Positions 3,475 through 29,791 of a stretch of 64,000 bases of DNA are shown here, in pieces. Numbering within the stretch: position 1 is the stretch's first letter; every line of letters starts with the position of its first letter. This DNA comes from an uncultured virus (IMG/VR IMGVR_UViG_3300002835_000131) (lineage: Duplodnaviria > Heunggongvirae > Uroviricota > Caudoviricetes), in IMG/VR virus record IMGVR_UViG_3300002835_000131, positions 1 through 64,000 of that record; one strand, given 5' to 3'. A model generated the notes under the pieces. That model had not been told where the DNA came from. It was given only the letters and a program-made list of their open reading frames with translations, and searched no databases. A program made the translations under genes and the position numbers.

Positions 3475-4359
3475 ATGAACCAAACACAAACTAAAAGACG
3501 CGGTAGACCGTCTAAAAAGAAGGTAGCACAAAATGTCACATACACGCCATCGTTAATTGATTTCTCAGCTATAACTAAGTTAAACAACTTAAATGTCGAT
3601 CCTAAAATGATGGAGACAATGAAGTCAGGTCTAGCATTAGATCACTTTGTAAGTTATGAGGGTGGAGTACCGAGCGCTTCAAATATGATGATTATAGGTG
3701 ATCCGGGTGTAGGTAAAACAACATTGTTATTAGATCTATTAGCCGCGGTACAGAATAAAAGCCGTAAATGCTTATTTATATCAGGTGAAATGGGCCGTAA
3801 GCAAATGTTTAAATACACACAACGGTTTCCACAGTTTGGTATTGTAGACACTTTATTTATGAGTGACTATATGAATCACAACACTAAGGATGTAATTGAA
3901 CAGGCGCTTAACATTGGATATGATTTAGTTTTAATTGATTCTATCGCTGAAATTATTGATGGGGTTAGAGATGATAACAATTGGGATAGAAAAATTGCCG
4001 AGTCATGGTTAGTAGATGTTTGTGTTAACAATAATAAAGGTGATAACAAAGGAAATAAGTACACATCGTTTCTACTGATTCAACAAGTTACTAAAGCGGG
4101 TGTGTTTGTGGGTTCGAATAAGCTGAAACACTTAACAGACGCAATGTTAGAAATGAGACGTGAGTCGGATAGAAATGGTGGTGGTACATATTTAACATTT
4201 ACTAAGAATAGAAACGGTGAGGCTGGAATGAGAATGAGTTTTCAATTAACAGGCACACAAATATATTACGGCACAATTGAAATTGATTCTGATGGATCAG
4301 ATGAGGAGTTGGAATTAGAAATAACCAACCCGGAGTATCAAAACATTATTTTTTCTTAA
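3475..4359 (+). CDS. RadA/Sms-like RecA-superfamily ATPase lacking the Lon-like C-terminal domain
   Basis: Walker A GDPGVGKT, FISGEM, Walker B LIDSI, GSNKLKHLTDA, KNRNG. Confidence 0.8.
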   Translation: MNQTQTKRRGRPSKKKVAQNVTYTPSLIDFSAITKLNNLNVDPKMMETMKSGLALDHFVSYEGGVPSASNMMIIGDPGVGKTTLLLDLLAAVQNKSRKCLFISGEMGRKQMFKYTQRFPQFGIVDTLFMSDYMNHNTKDVIEQALNIGYDLVLIDSIAEIIDGVRDDNNWDRKIAESWLVDVCVNNNKGDNKGNKYTSFLLIQQVTKAGVFVGSNKLKHLTDAMLEMRRESDRNGGGTYLTFTKNRNGEAGMRMSFQLTGTQIYYGTIEIDSDGSDEELELEITNPEYQNIIFS

Positions 4360-4364
4360 TATCT

Positions 4365-4411
4365 GAGGTAATTGGTCCTGGCGCGTTTCATATCCGCCCA
4401 GGGCTAACCTC
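4365..4411 (+). terminator. intergenic stem-loop
   Basis: TTGGTCCTGG (4372-81) pairs with CCAGGGCTAA (4398-4407) including G-U pairs; GAGG/CCTC closing stem. Confidence 0.45.
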
Positions 4412-4464
4412 TTGTTTGGCCTCCCGATCAATTGATGTTATATTTAATTATAAAGAAAAAAGAT

Positions 4465-4698
4465 ATGACAAACACAAACACTATCATCAAACAATTTTTA
4501 AAATTAAATTTTCCTAAACAGTTTATTTATTTTAATAATCCAAAATCAATTAAAATTCAATTACCAAACACAATTTCTGAATCATTAATTAATTTTTTAC
4601 AATCTCAAAATATTCAATTTAATTCAACACAACCTGAATTAATTCAATATCAATTAACATTTATTAAAAACATGACTCAAATCATAATTAATAAATAA
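4465..4698 (+). CDS. hypothetical early protein (G-depleted gene)
   Basis: Start moved to AAAGAT-ATG at 4465; promoter at 4415. Confidence 0.7.
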   Translation: MTNTNTIIKQFLKLNFPKQFIYFNNPKSIKIQLPNTISESLINFLQSQNIQFNSTQPELIQYQLTFIKNMTQIIINK

Positions 4699-4756
4699 AA
4701 AATTTGGCTTCCGGGTCAATTGATGTTATATTTAGATATAATAAGAAAATAAAGAT

Positions 4757-5191
4757 ATGAAAAAAGAAATTATTATTGCTCAAAAAAACAAAGATTTAAT
4801 CATCACAAACTATAGTGGTGATAGTATGTGTGGTGAAGGTAAGTACAGAGTTATAACAAAATGTAAAGCTGGGTTTATGGTTACAAGTGTTAAACAGGCT
4901 AAAAGTGCGATTGATGTGTTTCGTAGTTATAAAATTAAACATGTACATTCGATTGCTTTTATAAAAGAAAATGATAAGTTAGGTGGGTATGATTTTATGG
5001 TTTACGCTCGTGTAGGTAAAAAAGTATGGATTGAGGAAGATTTATTACGTGAGTTAGAGATAGGTGATATTAATCAGAGTCTATATAATACAGCTTTATA
5101 TTCTCAAGAACAATACAATAAAGTAAATGCTAAGTCATGGGCAAGTAAAGCATATGTGATGAATGGTTCGTTTGAATTTAGTGAGGCCTGA
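4757..5191 (+). CDS. hypothetical protein
   Basis: ORF with promoter and leader. Confidence 0.8.
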   Translation: MKKEIIIAQKNKDLIITNYSGDSMCGEGKYRVITKCKAGFMVTSVKQAKSAIDVFRSYKIKHVHSIAFIKENDKLGGYDFMVYARVGKKVWIEEDLLRELEIGDINQSLYNTALYSQEQYNKVNAKSWASKAYVMNGSFEFSEA

Positions 5192-5242: not shown

Positions 5243-5377
5243 ATGAAAATATTAAACATTTTAGATATACCAGGTAACGAGTTAGTAGAAGTGTTATGAA
5301 TCGATGATAATGAAATCGAGTTAATACCGATACAAGAGTTTATTAGTAAGTATGGAGTAGACAAATTAAATAAATAA
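5243..5377 (+). pseudogene. small gene interrupted by an in-frame TGA
   Basis: MKILNILDIPGNELVEVL*IDDNEIELIPIQEFISKYGVDKLNK; TGA at 5297-5299; directly behind the promoter at 5192. Confidence 0.5.
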
Positions 5378-6148: not shown

Positions 6149-6657
6149 TATTTTATATCATATCTTATGGGTGGGTCGATAATCTCGATCCCCCTTTTCT
6201 TGTTTTGTGTGGGTTACATCCCCTATCTGTTTGCGGTATATATACGGTATATGTACGGAGGTAGTGCGGTGGAAATGCGTGCGTTGTTATCCATCGATGT
6301 GTACGTGGTATGGAAGAAAGAAGGTGATGTAAAAACAGCAAGTAAACGTATACTGCGCGCGGAGCGTATATATTGATATACAACCACTACCTACCATACC
6401 ACTAACACGCATTAACACCGCTATATTCCGCCCATATCCCGCCTATAAACGACGAACAATTGTAAAATGCATAATGCGCAATTCCATATAGCTCCTTTGG
6501 TATAACCGGCTAAAGGCCGGAAATAACTTAGAAGTATAATTTTTCACATCGATGCAAATATATACCTATATACCTTAAGTTTGGCTCACCAGGATAAGGA
6601 TGTTATATTTAAGATGTTAAAAAAGATATAAGTTAAACAAGTTAAAAAATAAAGGTT

Positions 6658-7520: not shown

Positions 7521-8012
7521 ATGGGAAGTTATAAAACCAATAAACAAGTATTAAAAAAATTAACTGTTGAAGAAGCACAAGCCTTTATTCCGGTTAGTAT
7601 GGAAAACTCTGATGAGTTAGAAAATGCTTATTTTTATACTATGGTTCCTTTAGGTAATGGTTGGGATGAAATAAATTATTATACTAATCGAAATACTCAA
7701 ACTTGGAGACAAGGTAAACATAATAGTTGGATTTATATTTTATCTAATAAAACAATACCTGGTCTTTATAAAATTGGTCACACAACAAAACATCCTGATG
7801 AGCGGGCTAAAGAAATTTCACGATCAACTGGTGTACCAATTCCATTTGAAGTTGAATGGGCGTTTGACTGTTTTGATTCTGATAGGTTAGAAGTAGAAAT
7901 TCACAGAGCATTAGACTCGTTTAGATATTCATCAAATAAAGAATTTTTTGAAATATCTTTAAATGAAGCAAAAGAAACTATAAGGAAACTTGGCTCTGCA
8001 TATAGGAGTTAG
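7521..8012 (+). CDS. T5orf172/GIY-YIG-superfamily protein
   Basis: WIYILSN..GLYKIGHT..RAKE..TGVP.PF..E.EIH..EFF. Confidence 0.8.
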   Translation: MGSYKTNKQVLKKLTVEEAQAFIPVSMENSDELENAYFYTMVPLGNGWDEINYYTNRNTQTWRQGKHNSWIYILSNKTIPGLYKIGHTTKHPDERAKEISRSTGVPIPFEVEWAFDCFDSDRLEVEIHRALDSFRYSSNKEFFEISLNEAKETIRKLGSAYRS

Positions 8013-8225: not shown

Positions 8226-8298
<73 letters not shown>

Positions 8299-8409
8299 CC
8301 CGGATTCATATAAATCGAGCGCAAAACCAATTGCTCCTTAGGTAGAAATATATGAATAAACAACCCGTCACGGTATGTTCATAGAACAGGAGTGAACTAA
8401 GGAGAAAAT

Positions 8410-8529
8410 AGTTAGGTGGCGGAATAGTAGACGCAACAGGTAAGTTAACGGAATTATTAATTCCATAAGGCCATTAATTCCGAGATGTAAGAGAAATACA
8501 TCATACAGGTTCAAATCCTGTCCTAACTA
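8410..8529 (+). ncRNA. tRNA-like RNA with aberrant, expanded anticodon region
   Basis: Acceptor AGTTAGG/CCTAACT, Leu-like D arm, T arm ACAGG-TTCAAAT-CCTGT, no canonical anticodon arm. Confidence 0.65.
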
Positions 8530-8534
8530 CATAT

Positions 8535-8606
8535 TGCGGAATAGAGCAGTGGTAGCTCGCTAGGCTCATAACCTAGAGGTCATAGGTTCGAGTCCTATTT
8601 CCGCTA
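8535..8606 (+). tRNA. tRNA-Met(CAT), initiator-like
   Basis: Anticodon arm CTAGG-CTCATAA-CCTAG; unpaired 1:72 position. Confidence 0.88.
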
Positions 8607-8658
8607 CTAAATGTACTTGTAAGCATACCGTAAGATCTGCTTACAGGTCTTTCTTGGA

Positions 8659-8743
8659 GGAAGGTTGGCAGAGTGGTCGATTGCGGCAGTCTTGAAAACT
8701 GTTGTACTGTAAGGTACCGTAGGTTCGAATCCTACATCTTCCG
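8659..8743 (+). tRNA. tRNA-Ser(TGA)
   Basis: Anticodon loop CTTGAAA, long variable arm, discriminator G. Confidence 0.9.
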
Positions 8744-8748
8744 CTTCT

Positions 8749-8819
8749 TACCCTTTCGTCTAATGGCAGGACAATTGGTTTTGGTCCAATTAATCGAGGT
8801 TCGAGTCCTTGAGGGGTAA
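8749..8819 (+). tRNA. tRNA-Gln(TTG)
   Basis: ATTGG-TTTTGGT-CCAAT anticodon arm; GGTTCGAG T-loop. Confidence 0.9.
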
Positions 8820-8867
8820 CTGTTCTTTGATATATTGGTAGTATTAAAATCATAAGGAGACAAACAA

Positions 8868-9182
8868 ATGGAAACATTATCATTTATTTTAGGAATGTCC
8901 TCAGTAGTGGTTATCGCAATTGCGGTAGTTGCTGTTATAGGATTTTTTAAGGTTAGAAGTGTTGAAAAACAATTTAACGAATACAGACAAAACTTTACTG
9001 TTGGGTTTGATATGAGAATAAAAGATATTCACGATAGTATACATCAGGTAAATGATCAATTACATCGTAGAATTGATAACACAGAAAGAGAAGTTTTTTC
9101 CCAATTAGACTCTCGATTAGATAAATTGGAAACTAAATTAACAGACACAATTAAAAATGGTTGTGAACCTGTTAGAAAATAA
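8868..9182 (+). CDS. membrane-anchored coiled-coil protein
   Basis: N-terminal TM helix followed by heptad-like region. Confidence 0.75.
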   Translation: METLSFILGMSSVVVIAIAVVAVIGFFKVRSVEKQFNEYRQNFTVGFDMRIKDIHDSIHQVNDQLHRRIDNTEREVFSQLDSRLDKLETKLTDTIKNGCEPVRK

Positions 9183-9227
9183 ATTAACAAGTAAATAAAT
9201 TAAACCCACTACCAATATATTAAGAAC

Positions 9228-9302
9228 GCTCGGTTCGTCTAGGGGTTAGGACAGGAGATTTTCATTCTTCAAACAGGGGTTCGATTCCCCTACCGAGTAC
9301 CA
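9228..9302 (+). tRNA. tRNA-Glu(TTC) with encoded CCA
   Basis: Acceptor GCTCGGT/ACCGAGT, loop TTTTCAT, ends ACCA. Confidence 0.88.
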
Positions 9303-10224: not shown

Positions 10225-10573
10225 GGGTAAGGATACTGTTGTTGTAATGACTAAGAAGCAAGCAGAGAATATCAATATCGTATTTAAAAATACCAAGACT
10301 CAGATTGATAAACTTAAGATAGAGATTGACTCTATTACTAAGATTAAGCCTACCTTAGTCAGAGATACTATTTATAAGCGTGGTTCTATTTTAATTCCTA
10401 ATGGGAACTATTTGCTTTATAACTTTAATGAGTCAGAGAATAGATATGAACTAGACCCTAACTCTGTTATAGCTGCTAAAGGTACAGATGATGAGGCTAC
10501 TACTAAAAAAGATGTAGTCATTACTACTATAGGATTTGTCACTATATTTTCTTTATTTATTTTATTATTATAA
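10127..10573 (+). CDS. spanin-like partner (signal peptide + C-terminal TM)
   Basis: Overlaps previous gene by 98 nt in another frame; immediately precedes the endolysin. Confidence 0.5.
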   Translation: MNYKKLRLLLSITLLISLSHSALSQSYPTQRIEGKDTVVVMTKKQAENINIVFKNTKTQIDKLKIEIDSITKIKPTLVRDTIYKRGSILIPNGNYLLYNFNESENRYELDPNSVIAAKGTDDEATTKKDVVITTIGFVTIFSLFILLL

Positions 10574-10576
10574 CTT

Positions 10577-11047
10577 ATGCAATTATCAAAGTATTTCACA
10601 TTAGCTGAATTAACTCCTTCGGGAACAGCAAAACGTTTAGGTATTAAAAATGATCCAACTCCTGCACATTTAGAGTGCTTAAAAGGATTATCAGTTAATG
10701 TATTAGACAAAGTAAGAGAACATTTTGGAAAACCAATTTGGGTTTCTTCAGGTTACCGTTCTAAAGCATTAAACGAAGTTACACCAGGTTCTAGTGCTAC
10801 ATCACAACATTGTTCAGGTGAAGCAGCTGATTTAGATCAAGATGGTAGAGGTACAGGTGTATCTAACAAAATGGTATTCGATTATATCAAGGATCATTTG
10901 AATTTTGATCAATTAATTTACGAGTACGGAACTGATGCTAATCCTGATTGGGTTCATGTTAGCTGGGAATCTACAGGTAAACAAAGAAAGCAAGTATTAC
11001 GTTGTACTAGAGTAAACGGTAAACCAGTTTATACACCATACAAGTAA
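10577..11047 (+). CDS. endolysin, peptidase M15 family Zn peptidase
   Basis: SSGYRS, SQHCSGEAAD, WVHVS motifs. Confidence 0.88.
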   Translation: MQLSKYFTLAELTPSGTAKRLGIKNDPTPAHLECLKGLSVNVLDKVREHFGKPIWVSSGYRSKALNEVTPGSSATSQHCSGEAADLDQDGRGTGVSNKMVFDYIKDHLNFDQLIYEYGTDANPDWVHVSWESTGKQRKQVLRCTRVNGKPVYTPYK

Positions 11048-11096
11048 TTTAATTACAGCTTGGCATCATGACCACTCTTTATTATATATCAGGAGT

Positions 11097-11537
11097 ATGG
11101 ACATAGATAAAGTATTTAATTCATTTAATGATGGAGAGTTTCAGGAGGCTATAAAAGATCTCAGGGACACTCCATCTTATTGGATTGGTATGTTTAAAAA
11201 ACTAATACACAATTATAATAGTGGTTATCAATATTTCATGAAAAATCTTTTAGACTCACTAGAAGATGAACACGACATAGATAAGGAAAAAGTAAAAGAC
11301 ACAGTTGAATACTTAACTTATTCTATAGCATACTCATATATTAAAAGACTTGATATTACCGATTTATCCCACGTATATTACATTACCTTAGCAACTGACG
11401 ATATGCTGTTGACTAGTGTTAAACGTTGTTTATACTACTTTGAATCAATAGAGAGATATGAAGATTGTGCTTATCTAAAATCAATTGAAACAGAAGTAAA
11501 CAAAATTCTCCTAAAGTTTGGCTCCCCAAGTAAATAA
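11097..11537 (+). CDS. hypothetical protein with C-terminal UvrB/UvrC-like motif
   Basis: ESIERYEDCAYLK. Confidence 0.6.
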   Translation: MDIDKVFNSFNDGEFQEAIKDLRDTPSYWIGMFKKLIHNYNSGYQYFMKNLLDSLEDEHDIDKEKVKDTVEYLTYSIAYSYIKRLDITDLSHVYYITLATDDMLLTSVKRCLYYFESIERYEDCAYLKSIETEVNKILLKFGSPSK

Positions 11538-11646
11538 CATTATATTTTGAATACGGGTTTTAAGGATTAAGAGAGATAGGGAATAAGAACGAAACAAGAA
11601 CAAGAAAAGCACCTAGAGAATAAAATGGGTGGTTATAAATAAACAT

Positions 11647-11844
11647 ATGAGAAATAGAGAAATTTTTAATAGGAAATTAGAGAACTTAGAGTCTAATTTA
11701 ACTAAAATGTCTTACTTATTAAGACGCCAAGGAACTAAAGATGAGTATGATGACATGATCACATCTTGTAGAGATTTAATTGAACAGATGAAATCATATA
11801 TTAATATGGAACCTGTTACACCTAATGAAATCAATAAGTACTAA
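11647..11844 (+). CDS. hypothetical protein
   Basis: ATG at 11647; early-type promoter at 11517-11548. Confidence 0.65.
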   Translation: MRNREIFNRKLENLESNLTKMSYLLRRQGTKDEYDDMITSCRDLIEQMKSYINMEPVTPNEINKY

Positions 11845-11845
11845 T

Positions 11846-12625
11846 ATGTTACAACCGGAACAAATATTAAGTAACTGGGAAGAGTTCTTAGGTTATATTG
11901 ATATGTACATTATGGGAGACCGTGGTGCTAAATTAAAAGCGTTTTATGAACAATATTCTGAACGTTTTATGATGATGCCGGCTGCTCATAAACCTCAATA
12001 TCATAATTGTTTTCCTGGTGGTTATGTAGATCATGTTAATAGAGTAGTTCAAGGTGCTATAAAAATAGATCGTGTATGGAGGGAAATGGATGTAATTGAT
12101 ACTTATACTACAGAAGAATTAATATTTTCTGCTCTGAATCATGATTTAGGTAAATTTGGTACTTTTGAACAAGAAGCATATTTACCTCAAACTGACCAAT
12201 GGAGACGAGAAAAATTAAATGAACCGTATATGTTTAATGATCGTTTGGAGTTTATGTCTGTACCTGATCGTGGTTTATATATATTATCTCAGCTAGGAAT
12301 TACAGTTACTAAAAATGAAATGTTAACTATTAAGTTACATGATGGTCTATATGATGAAGCTAATAAACCATACTTAATGTCATGGATGCCAGAAACTAGA
12401 CCTCGTACTTCATTAATTTATATAGTTCATCAAGCCGACTTAATGGCAGCAAGAATTGAATTCGAAAGAGAATGGTTACCTAAATTATTAGGTCCTAAAG
12501 CAGAAAATAAAGCAAATTTTAATTTAAAAAAAGAAGATAAGAAGACACCAGTTAAATCTAAAGCACTAAGTAGTGTTAAAAGTGAAGGTTTAAAAAATGT
12601 AATGTCTAATTTCTTCGACGAATAA
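11846..12625 (+). CDS. HD-domain phosphohydrolase (YhaM-like)
   Basis: PAA..HNCFPGG..DH, NHDLGK, HDG, HQAD. Confidence 0.82.
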   Translation: MLQPEQILSNWEEFLGYIDMYIMGDRGAKLKAFYEQYSERFMMMPAAHKPQYHNCFPGGYVDHVNRVVQGAIKIDRVWREMDVIDTYTTEELIFSALNHDLGKFGTFEQEAYLPQTDQWRREKLNEPYMFNDRLEFMSVPDRGLYILSQLGITVTKNEMLTIKLHDGLYDEANKPYLMSWMPETRPRTSLIYIVHQADLMAARIEFEREWLPKLLGPKAENKANFNLKKEDKKTPVKSKALSSVKSEGLKNVMSNFFDE

Positions 12626-28328: not shown

Positions 28329-29333
28329 ATGGGCGCTTACAAACAATTTTTAGCATCTGATATCGTAGTAACTCCCTTCGAAGTGAATAAAGCATTCAAC
28401 TTCGAGGGAGCAGCCGCATTAACTGCTTCTGGTGTTGGAATTGATAGATTTTTAGGAACTAATATAACAGGAGCTTTTAATCTTGCTTCTGCTCCTACAA
28501 CAGGACAAGTATCAACTCAATATCAAAGTTTAGTATATAATTCAATTAAAGAATTATATTATACAAACTACTTAAGTTCAAGTTATGGTGATAATGTAAA
28601 TACAGCTAGTTTAATACCTGGAGCTGATACAGCAGGAGATAGATATGTTGGTACCACACAAACACCTAACTATTTTAACTACTTACAAACTACATTAACT
28701 TACCAAAGATATTTTCCTACAGGTTCAAATGATATTATAGGTGTTATATCTATTCCTTCACGTTTATTTGGAGATTATATTCAACCTAAGTCATTTGTTT
28801 ATACTACACCTAGTGGTAGCATAACAGATGATGGAGAAGGTAATATAATAGATGAAAACTTAGAAATTATAGGTAATATATTTTATTATCAAGGACTTAT
28901 AACTATTACAACTTCTAATCCTATAGGATATGGATTTGTAACTTATGGTAATACACTTTATGGTGGTCAAGCAGGAGATAATACTTCAATTTTAGAATAT
29001 GTTACTGGTAGCAATATAACTTGTTCATTCTCTAGTTCATATAAAATATATGAAACACAATATAAATGTACAATGAGAGAAAATGAATTTAATTTTTCTC
29101 AAAATCCAAGTTTATCCTCAGGTAGTACATTAATATCAAGTTCAATGGGTACTTTCTTTACTCCAGGACAATATTTAACAGATAACGTAACAGGTTCTTA
29201 TTTTTCACCTTATGTAACAACAGTAGGTTTATATGATGAAAATCAAAACTTATTAGCAGTAGGAAAACTATCCCAACCCTTACCTGTATCACCTACTACA
29301 GATACAACAATATTAATTAATTTAGACAGATAA
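28329..29333 (+). CDS. baseplate/tail-collar-like structural protein (paralogue of previous)
   Basis: EFNFSQNPS and YVTTVGLYDE..LLAVGKLSQP shared with 27291-28325. Confidence 0.65.
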   Translation: MGAYKQFLASDIVVTPFEVNKAFNFEGAAALTASGVGIDRFLGTNITGAFNLASAPTTGQVSTQYQSLVYNSIKELYYTNYLSSSYGDNVNTASLIPGADTAGDRYVGTTQTPNYFNYLQTTLTYQRYFPTGSNDIIGVISIPSRLFGDYIQPKSFVYTTPSGSITDDGEGNIIDENLEIIGNIFYYQGLITITTSNPIGYGFVTYGNTLYGGQAGDNTSILEYVTGSNITCSFSSSYKIYETQYKCTMRENEFNFSQNPSLSSGSTLISSSMGTFFTPGQYLTDNVTGSYFSPYVTTVGLYDENQNLLAVGKLSQPLPVSPTTDTTILINLDR

Positions 29334-29791
29334 TGTTAACATTACCAACTTGGGTTTACAATAGTAAACCCATCACTAACCTCAACGATTTTCCTAAAGA
29401 TACATTTGGATTTATTTATATAGTTAAAAATACTGATACTAATAAATCTTATATAGGTAAAAAAGTATTATACCATAATAAAAAAGTAAAATTAGGTAAA
29501 AAAGAAGTAGCCGAATTAACTGGTGTTGGCCGTAAACCAACTACTAAAATAATAACCAAAGAATCAGATTGGGAAACATATTACGGCTCTAATAAAGAAG
29601 TAATGCAATTAATTAAAGACGGTAAACAAGATTTGTTCACTCGCACTATAATTAAATTAGCACCTAATAAAAAATTACTAACTTACTACGAAACACAAGC
29701 CTTATTTACATATAAAGTATTAGAACACCCAGAATCATTCTATAATGATAATATATTAGGTAAGTTCTTTACTAAGGACTTTACACTATAG
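29333..29791 (+). CDS. GIY-YIG-family nuclease-like protein
   Basis: GFIYIVKN..SYIGKK; DW.TYYGS; YNDNI. Confidence 0.7.
   Translation: MLTLPTWVYNSKPITNLNDFPKDTFGFIYIVKNTDTNKSYIGKKVLYHNKKVKLGKKEVAELTGVGRKPTTKIITKESDWETYYGSNKEVMQLIKDGKQDLFTRTIIKLAPNKKLLTYYETQALFTYKVLEHPESFYNDNILGKFFTKDFTL

Follow-up and report, generated by a model that had tools for sequence, protein, structure and literature searches.

A nearly G-free early-type gene in an uncultured T4-type phage and the selection that appears to maintain it

An uncultured phage, known from a 74,176-bp viral contig (IMG/VR IMGVR_UViG_3300002835_000131) rated 46% complete, carries a small early-type gene whose coding strand has almost dispensed with the letter G. 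The gene lies at 4465-4698 on the plus strand of the window, by which we mean the whole stretch analysed here, bases 1-64000 of that contig. Comparison with its homologues lends good support to the view that this strand is kept nearly G-free by purifying selection acting at the level of the nucleic acid and not at that of the protein. As to the cause, our best guess, held with a probability of about 0.4, places first a class of explanations in which every G of the transcript, or of its synthesis, carries a hazard. The same phage contains three genes almost without C (220-441, 530-925 and 1020-1265). In this phage group, the scarcity of G and that of C are both real, under selection and specific to gene families.

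The open reading frame (ORF) runs from ATG to TAA over 234 nt, with a composition of A110 C37 G5 T82. A preliminary description of this DNA had reported just five G in it, at 4467, 4521, 4579, 4636 and 4674, and these positions were confirmed exactly. Two of them fall in ATG codons, two in GAA codons and one in a CAG codon; their roughly even spacing in the window (54, 58, 57 and 38 nt), which is uneven in the homologue L012, was treated as a coincidence. Across all 234-nt windows of the 64,000-nt stretch the mean is 38.1 G (standard deviation, SD, 7.7), and those with ten G or fewer are found within 4419-4724 only, with a minimum of 4. In the remainder of the contig (64001-74176), no window of this size drops below 24 G. 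Defined by a limit of 3 G per 150 nt, the depletion extends over 4463-4705, that is to say the ORF and nothing more. The 77-residue product (I13 N11 Q10 T7 K7 F7 L7 S5 P4 M2 Y2 E2) is devoid of Gly, Ala, Val, Asp, Arg, Cys and Trp, in agreement with the preliminary description, and the residue count shows that His is missing too. G-obligate residues, which have a G in every codon, make up 4 of the 77, against a mean of 28.3 (SD 6.1) and a minimum of 11 in 13,391 windows of 77 residues taken from the 48 large ORFs of the phage. This scarcity of G is confirmed and lies far beyond chance. The C content of the ORF (15.8%, against 13% in the contig) is normal or raised, so that the G-poverty does not result from AT pressure; a G-poor gene with normal C cannot arise by cytosine deamination of the coding strand either, an explanation that had been disfavoured from the outset.

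The possibility that the ORF is no gene at all, being a chance frame or an inverted fragment of a C-free gene, has the mirror-image composition in its favour and nothing else. The inverted fragment had been named in the preliminary description as an example of what would overturn its reading. The forward frame of 4465-4698 is the only open one, the three reverse and the two other forward frames being full of stops, and no minus-strand similarity to the C-free block was found. The ORF is moreover conserved down to 34-46% identity and comes with a confidently predicted fold. Together these observations refute the non-gene reading, to which we attach next to no credence, and 4465-4698 can be regarded as a genuine early-type gene, presumably transcribed and translated.

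The family to which it belongs comprises 30 clusters at 61-100% identity in a word-indexed search and 6 further clusters in a profile search of 1.84 billion representatives, about 36 in total; it is small and apparently restricted to this group of phages. From an alignment of 22 sequences, AlphaFold2 proposes a structure of the order H-E-E-H-E-E-E-E with a predicted local distance difference test (pLDDT) of 92.6 and a predicted template modelling score (pTM) of 0.79. The model is that of a ferredoxin-like alpha/beta protein, a generic alpha/beta sandwich that gives no functional clue. Foldseek returned no match at E <= 1e-3 in PDB and BFVD. The best hits of a wide VIA-align comparison (the XcpY periplasmic domain and de novo designed proteins, Z up to 7.1) remain inside the background range stated for the tool. 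No Pfam or PHROG family and no usable ESM Atlas match corresponds to the product, and the phage GenBank collection contained no DNA match to the gene and a single protein match at chance level (E = 4).

Selection on the nucleotide can be followed at third codon positions. Among 14 distinct sequences of the G-poor family (pairwise amino acid identity 0.45 at the minimum, 0.69 at the median), 61 third-position columns are variable; A is a state in 48 of them, C in 45 and T in 59, and G in 7, accounting for 2.1% of the nucleotides. As a control we used the neighbouring gene for a RecA-like ATPase from the same phage group, represented by 22 distinct sequences with a median identity of 0.70. There, G is a state in 153 of 258 variable columns and accounts for 13.7% of the nucleotides. 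The difference (7/61 against 153/258) gives a Fisher P of 3e-12, a value weakened by the relatedness of the homologues, whose columns are not independent events; the contrast is nevertheless large. A synonymous test based on the codon usage of 12 neighbouring early genes gave 12.6 G expected for 4 observed, the minimum possible being 3 (P = 1.4e-4). The case for selection is less clear when the 48 large and mostly late genes, which hardly use G-ending codons, serve as the reference, with 6.4 G expected for the same 4 observed (P = 0.12).

This last figure, by which late-gene codon usage explains the G count from the amino acid sequence, speaks for a requirement of the protein itself, rich in Ile, Asn, Gln, Lys and Thr, or for neutral compositional drift or AT pressure. 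So does the conserved core motif FIYYNNPKSIKIQLP, which is made of residues needing no G. Such readings have difficulty with third positions that vary freely among A, C and T yet shun G, and with a C content that is not lowered. Residue swaps track the codon table, with Lys and not Arg, Asn and not Asp, Gln and not Glu, Ile and not Val, Thr or Ser and not Ala or Gly, and the missing residues have only the codon letter G in common. Across the family, G-obligate residues make up between 4% and 26% of the protein, and the aligned positions of distant members include Val, Asp, Glu, Arg, Ala and Gly. With Val, Asp, Arg and Ala present in such homologues, a G-free alphabet is not required by the fold. 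An origin in the protein or in neutral drift therefore appears very improbable to us. A mutation bias specific to this gene is also unlikely, because neighbours with the same promoter type are ordinary.

G-poverty travels with the gene family wherever the cassette sits, and not with the region. We examined 24 homologue loci, namely 22 of the 24 metagenome loci found, to the exclusion of two 100% matches (L050 and L051), together with L016 and L017. In 18 of the 24, including two ORFs cut by contig ends, the gene has 0.9-4.5% G between 1-kb flanks of 17.1-22.2% G; the other six are considered further below. The gene counts 2 G over 225 nt in L058 and 7 over 222 nt in L071, where identity with the protein of the window is down to 46%. 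In every relative, the depletion ends at the ORF borders. A second set, fetched through the neighbouring RecA-like ATPase (66-100% identity), consists of 29 loci, which together with the contig itself make 30 sources. Among the 1078 plus-strand ORFs of at least 45 aa in these sources, five members of the G-poor family are the only ones at or below 5% G; two short minus-strand ORFs also at or below this limit were taken for antisense artefacts, unchecked. The complete 154.8-kb genome of a relative (G002) contains no G-poor ORF and one C-free ORF only. According to the preliminary description, the cassette may have come from a relative with a G-free leading region, and the neighbourhoods of homologues were to be inspected for this. 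Their flanks contain 17-27% G at the 24 loci, and no G-free region was encountered in these loci, in the 29 ATPase-linked ones or in the 154.8-kb genome, so that this origin is unsupported as far as these data reach.

These results also bear on the cause suggested in the same description, which is that sites for restriction or modification are avoided at the DNA level, perhaps as a legacy of a relative with a G-free first-entering region. A strand without G or C cannot hold palindromes containing these letters. The gene has a single G/C-containing 4-mer palindrome (CATG at 4671) compared with 18.4 per kb in the contig, and the C-free block at 100-1330 holds only 3. The immediate surroundings of the gene argue otherwise: within 90 bp, the flanks carry seven G/C palindromes (GCGC, CGCG, GGCC, GATC and CAATTG at most 90 bp upstream, CCGG and CAATTG at most 25 bp downstream), and a cut in a flank would be as lethal as a cut in the gene. 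The remaining genome is ordinary and the DNA stays cleavable. The G content of the neighbours is normal in all relatives, and the depletion is restricted to the ORF (4463-4705), not spread over a contiguous region with its intergenic DNA as the leading-region class requires. Phage T4 packages its genome by headful, which makes a fixed leading end doubtful in a T4-type phage; a complete relative assembles with a 123-bp end overlap, and a longer contig has ordinary DNA upstream of the C-free block. Site avoidance is thus not supported for the G-poor gene and seems improbable as its cause, a verdict limited to this gene and not applied to the C-free block.

On the side of DNA chemistry, base modification through 7-deazaguanine was considered and rejected, as no such genes were found; a PHROG match to an 'NAD synthetase' turned out to be a SegE-type GIY-YIG endonuclease. 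A gene of the Thymidylat_synt family, which at 370-378 aa is longer than ordinary ThyA, is present in three of four related records (L079-L084; G001, G002, G003); it may encode a thymidylate synthase or else a pyrimidine hydroxymethylase, an enzyme of base modification.

The three C-free genes have 1, 1 and 2 C where 13.1, 17.7 and 12.6 are expected from their amino acid sequences (P <= 5e-6). At synonymous sites they are enriched in G, with 91 observed against 73.7 expected and 70 against 47.6. The C-free block (141-1270) has 25 C in 1163 nt, intergenic DNA counted, and the intergenic DNA between the first and second genes is likewise C-free. The 131-aa C-free family (family B) comprises 60 homologue clusters at 47-100% identity, of which 44 are free of C-obligate residues and the others have 5 at most; no G-poor member occurs among them. 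Locus searches with single C-free protein sequences retrieved close relatives only, and diverged relatives retain C-free blocks. At 10470-12047 of the locus L044, a strong terminator is followed by a spacer that consists purely of A/T for about 250 bp and contains two promoter-like repeats in tandem, and then by three genes covering about 1.5 kb without any C; this arrangement lies downstream of the ATPase gene, versus upstream in the window. The word GGAG is mildly enriched in the C-free block of the window (6.0 per kb against 3.8 expected). In a search for a RegB-like GGAG nuclease, the Pfam REGB_T4 model matched none of the four records, the control genomes being equally silent.

A symmetric account of the C-free and G-free genes would be that of a three-letter message free of structure: dropping either G or C abolishes G-C pairing and would leave the mRNA unfolded and translated at once. 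The mean minimum free energy (MFE) per 120-nt window is indeed -5.6 kcal/mol in the G-poor gene and -6.6 to -9.3 in the C-free genes, while the contig has a mean of -17.4 (SD 5.2) and the neighbouring early genes range from -15 to -25. Recoding experiments in silico do not follow this account. The G-poor message with its leader has a folding energy of -17.5 against -18.3 (SD 3.2) for synonymous recodings allowed to use G, 46% of 50 such recodings being as weakly folded or weaker, and its structure exceeds that of 98% of 50 G-free recodings (mean -11.1). Shedding third-position G thus buys almost no loss of structure, and codons ending in G, a source of additional G-U pairs, are preferred in the C-free genes. 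We regard a structure-free message as an unlikely driver of the depletion. The least structured 120-nt window of the contig was found outside the window, at 69121-69240, with an MFE of -1.5 kcal/mol at 28% G+C, in a stretch with more C than G.

A signal related to the transcription terminator Rho was weighed as well. The Rho-utilization (rut) sites on which this factor loads are described as C-rich, G-poor and unstructured 'C>G bubbles' with repeats of YC, a pyrimidine followed by C, in the account given in PMC9160355. The G-poor transcript could accordingly be a rut-type RNA, either hypersensitive to Rho as part of a delayed-early switch or titrating Rho, with the G-enriched C-free genes as a Rho-proof opposite extreme. 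The C>G bubble around the gene (4313-4735) is indeed the longest continuous one in the contig. The gene has 20 YC, with 6-10 per 78 nt compared with a contig mean of 4.5 (SD 2.5), and its G-poor homologues contain 15-22% C against 11-16% in their flanks. The synonymous G enrichment of the C-free genes and a non-coding C-rich and G-poor tract closing the early cluster (6377-6470) would also be in keeping with a role of Rho. On the other hand, C exceeds G in 28% of all 78-nt windows, several of them with a similar or higher amplitude, and C is not enriched at synonymous sites of the gene (37 observed, 35.5 expected). The ORF begins about 20 nt past the promoter, and ribosomes should cover the RNA and block the loading of Rho. 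The conservation of the protein would be left unexplained. On balance, we consider this possibility to be rather unlikely.

The non-coding tract is of interest in itself. At 6377-6520, after the last small early gene, the sequence is C-rich and almost G-free, the excess of C over G reaching 25 in 78 nt, the maximum of the contig. It continues into a CCGGC/GCCGG hairpin (6506-6520) and another promoter repeat, and may represent a rut-like terminator closing the early cluster.

In the reading that we favour, each single G in the message would carry a cost, imposed by an agent that acts on G residues one by one. Candidate agents would be G-directed RNA cleavage, G-directed RNA modification, and chain termination by a GTP analogue or limitation of GTP during transcription, all of which a three-letter message of A, U and C would escape. 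Base-specific RNases and RNA-modifying toxins are among the agents known to act letter by letter; nothing ties them to this phage. Production of the 77-aa protein, presumably a factor for host takeover or counter-defence, would then continue while ordinary messages are crippled, and the C-free genes at 220-1265 would apply the same trick against a C-directed agent. A per-G hazard fits the strict and additive character of the avoidance, in which even synonymous G is removed, and the fact that the depletion is bounded by the ORF. It also fits the parallel existence of C-free genes and the G and C tolerated in stem-loops past the stop codon. As seen above, a synonymous G barely alters the predicted folding yet is selected against, which suggests a cost per G rather than a collective property.

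Several points count against this proposal. The transcription and translation of the G-poor gene are inferred, and we know of no G-specific agent in the host. The leader keeps two G and the start codon provides a third. GTP is needed for translation too, which makes its limitation, taken alone, a weak candidate. Nor is the constraint universal in the family: among the six remaining homologue loci, the genes of L066 and L069 have 7% G and those of L063, L064, L065 and L067 have 12-13.6%, about half of the 23-27% found in their flanks.

A more specific version of the proposal, which we hold to be unlikely taken by itself, is that the G-free and C-free genes are 'one-nucleotide-independent' messages. 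The host RNA polymerase could finish them amid a chain-terminating analogue (the 3'-deoxy-3',4'-didehydro nucleotides ddhGTP or ddhCTP) or without one nucleoside triphosphate (NTP), and they would encode counter-measures to that very defence. Each three-letter gene would in that case be the mark of an anti-defence protein, and its missing letter would tell which nucleotide the defence exploits. Chain terminators of this kind, ddhCTP, ddhGTP and ddhUTP, are reported as products of viperins (bioRxiv 10.1101/2023.09.13.557418). The probability remaining beyond all the readings listed is reserved for causes that we have not thought of.

The genomic setting of the gene is that of a T4-type phage. 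The markers include Pfam matches to Portal_T4 (9e-65), Terminase_6N (2e-11) and the prohead protease Peptidase_S77 (3e-31), with PHROG matches to baseplate wedge, portal and terminase, and gene content thus identifies an uncultured T4-type myovirus. All large ORFs are on the plus strand. The first 6.5 kb contain about 20 small genes, most of them behind a repeated element, often coupled with a stem-loop, that precedes about 12 of them; they gave one sub-threshold Pfam match, and their PHROG matches are only to families of unknown function. The locus has the appearance of an early-gene cassette of the promoter-early stem-loop (PeSL) type in a variable early region, with putative promoter and terminator functions.

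Upstream of the gene and after the RecA-like ATPase gene, a plus-strand stem-loop at 4375-4404 (GTCCTGG...CCAGGGC, 7-bp stem) is kept in L022 and L023 and would be the terminator-like half of an upstream promoter/stem-loop element. A putative sigma-70-like early promoter (TTTGGCC) follows at 4415-4444 on the same strand, its TTGGCC (4416-4421) and TATATT (4439-4444) being separated by a 17-nt spacer. Its activity is deduced from the consensus match only, the pattern being TTGRCC, 17 nt, TATATT. A Bacteroidota-type promoter, likewise considered, was dropped given the existence of TTGACC variants. The spacer contains two of the palindromes listed above, GATC (4426) and CAATTG (4429). The A-rich leader TAATTATAAAGAAAAAAGAT (4445-4464, plus strand), which ends in AAAGAAAAAAGAT before the ATG, has no canonical Shine-Dalgarno sequence; it is common to neighbouring early genes, and the gene at 1319 has an identical one (100%). 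Past the stop codon, the downstream junction (4703-4756, plus strand) is made of a degenerate stem-loop, TTGGCTTCCGGGTCAA (4703-4718), of the promoter that comes next, with TTGGCT at 4704 and TATATT at 4727, and of the leader belonging to gene 4757-5191. The hairpins of other cassettes read GGCCTTCGGGCC or GGGAGGG/CCCTCCC.

The closest copies of the upstream element are found at 1292-1322 (31 nt, 100%, in front of the gene at 1319) and at 2242-2281 (40 nt, 95%). The C-free genes carry a variant, with 22 identical nt at 972-993 and a leader about 25 nt longer. The preliminary description placed the G-poor gene behind the same promoter and leader as its C-free counterparts, which is right for the family of elements. 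Within the contig, repeats of the cassette are limited to promoter and leader and are all on the plus strand; antisense pairing with the C-free genes was discarded as a candidate, since only these plus-strand matches were found. In the G-richer subfamily (L063, L064, L065 and L067), the ATG comes just 5 nt past the TATATT box (TATATTTAGGT-ATG), which suggests that their messages are leaderless or nearly so.

Comparison with close relatives shows the cassette gained, lost or moved. Cassettes 4465-4698 and 4757-5191 are both absent from L022, which has a 99% identical ATPase, and the promoter repeat there runs directly into the homologue of gene 5243. In L023 (96% identical), an unrelated gene takes the place of the G-poor cassette directly after the conserved promoter repeat, and in L017 the G-poor gene is on the opposite side of the ATPase gene. 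Gene 5243-5377 itself (MKILNILDIPGNELVEVL) is interrupted by an in-frame TGA at 5297-5299; the corresponding codon in the 99%-related L022 is TGG. The frame runs 25 codons further, and the copy in the window looks truncated by a nonsense change.

Other features of the window deserve mention. Two genes resemble mobile endonucleases and lie inside modules, one for a T5orf172/MUG113-domain protein (7521-8012) and the other for the SegE-type GIY-YIG homing endonuclease labelled 'NAD synthetase' by PHROG (29333-29791). Five tRNA genes at 8226-9302 (Thr-UGU, Met-CAU, Ser-UGA, Gln-UUG and Glu-UUC) read the codons ACA, AUG, UCA, CAA and GAA. The codons of the G-poor gene for Thr, Met, Ser, Gln and Glu are those that these tRNAs read, and the C-free genes avoid three of them (ACA, UCA and CAA).

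Natural coding sequences almost never dispense with one of the four letters, and the majority of natural DNA and RNA is without long three-letter stretches according to the account in PMC6526412. No account of naturally occurring phage genes free of C or of G turned up in our literature search, which had subscription journals and bioRxiv supplements outside its reach. Here, the gene of a folded protein is held at 1-4% G across lineages down to 46% identity, with ordinary genes a few bases away. This would point to an agent, from host or phage, that reads single G or C in early messages or during their synthesis, and such an agent lies outside the current picture of phage-host conflict. Once identified, it would turn three-letter genes into a flag, legible from the sequence only, for proteins needed under attack, and the principle could be reused for the design of attack-proof messages. 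Even a mundane cause would show how far selection at the nucleotide level can reshape the amino acid alphabet of a protein.

Several known systems offer partial parallels. The G-less and C-less cassettes of in vitro transcription are laboratory templates whose transcript can be completed without one NTP; the phage gene similarly comes close to dispensing with one NTP, and it differs from them in being a natural and conserved coding gene. ACA-less mRNAs resist MazF, a case in which a message without the cleavage word escapes an RNase. The word avoided there has three nucleotides, whereas a whole nucleotide is avoided here. The first-step-transfer region of phage T5, the first DNA to enter the cell, is poor in restriction sites, and it too provides early phage genes without the words that host nucleases read. 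In the present T4-type phage, by contrast, a whole letter is missing from one 234-nt ORF and the flanks keep their sites. Viperin products resemble the proposed agent in being antiviral and in acting at single C or G positions of RNA synthesis (bioRxiv 10.1101/2023.09.13.557418); they figure here as a candidate agent only, nothing linking this phage or its host to viperins.

With rut sites, as PMC9160355 presents them, the G-poor transcript shares a C-rich, G-poor and unstructured RNA with many YC over more than 200 nt (C37/G5; MFE -5.6 kcal/mol per 120 nt). It departs from them as a conserved protein-coding ORF placed directly behind its start codon, with C no higher than the amino acids dictate. 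In organisation, the locus resembles the PeSL cassette of T4-type phages, which flanks ORFans in hyperplastic regions and mediates modular shuffling (PMC2839356, Arbiol et al. 2010; PMC4122927, Comeau et al. 2014). PeSL cassettes combine repeated strong sigma-70-like early promoters with stem-loops ahead of small ORFans. The likeness extends to putative promoters of this kind before small ORFans and to genes gained, lost or swapped with junctions in the repeats, and a clear stem-loop lies upstream of the gene. The present cassette differs in its missing Shine-Dalgarno sequence and its degenerate downstream stem-loop. Compared with PeSL as described in these two accounts, its distinctive addition is a coding sequence depleted in one base.

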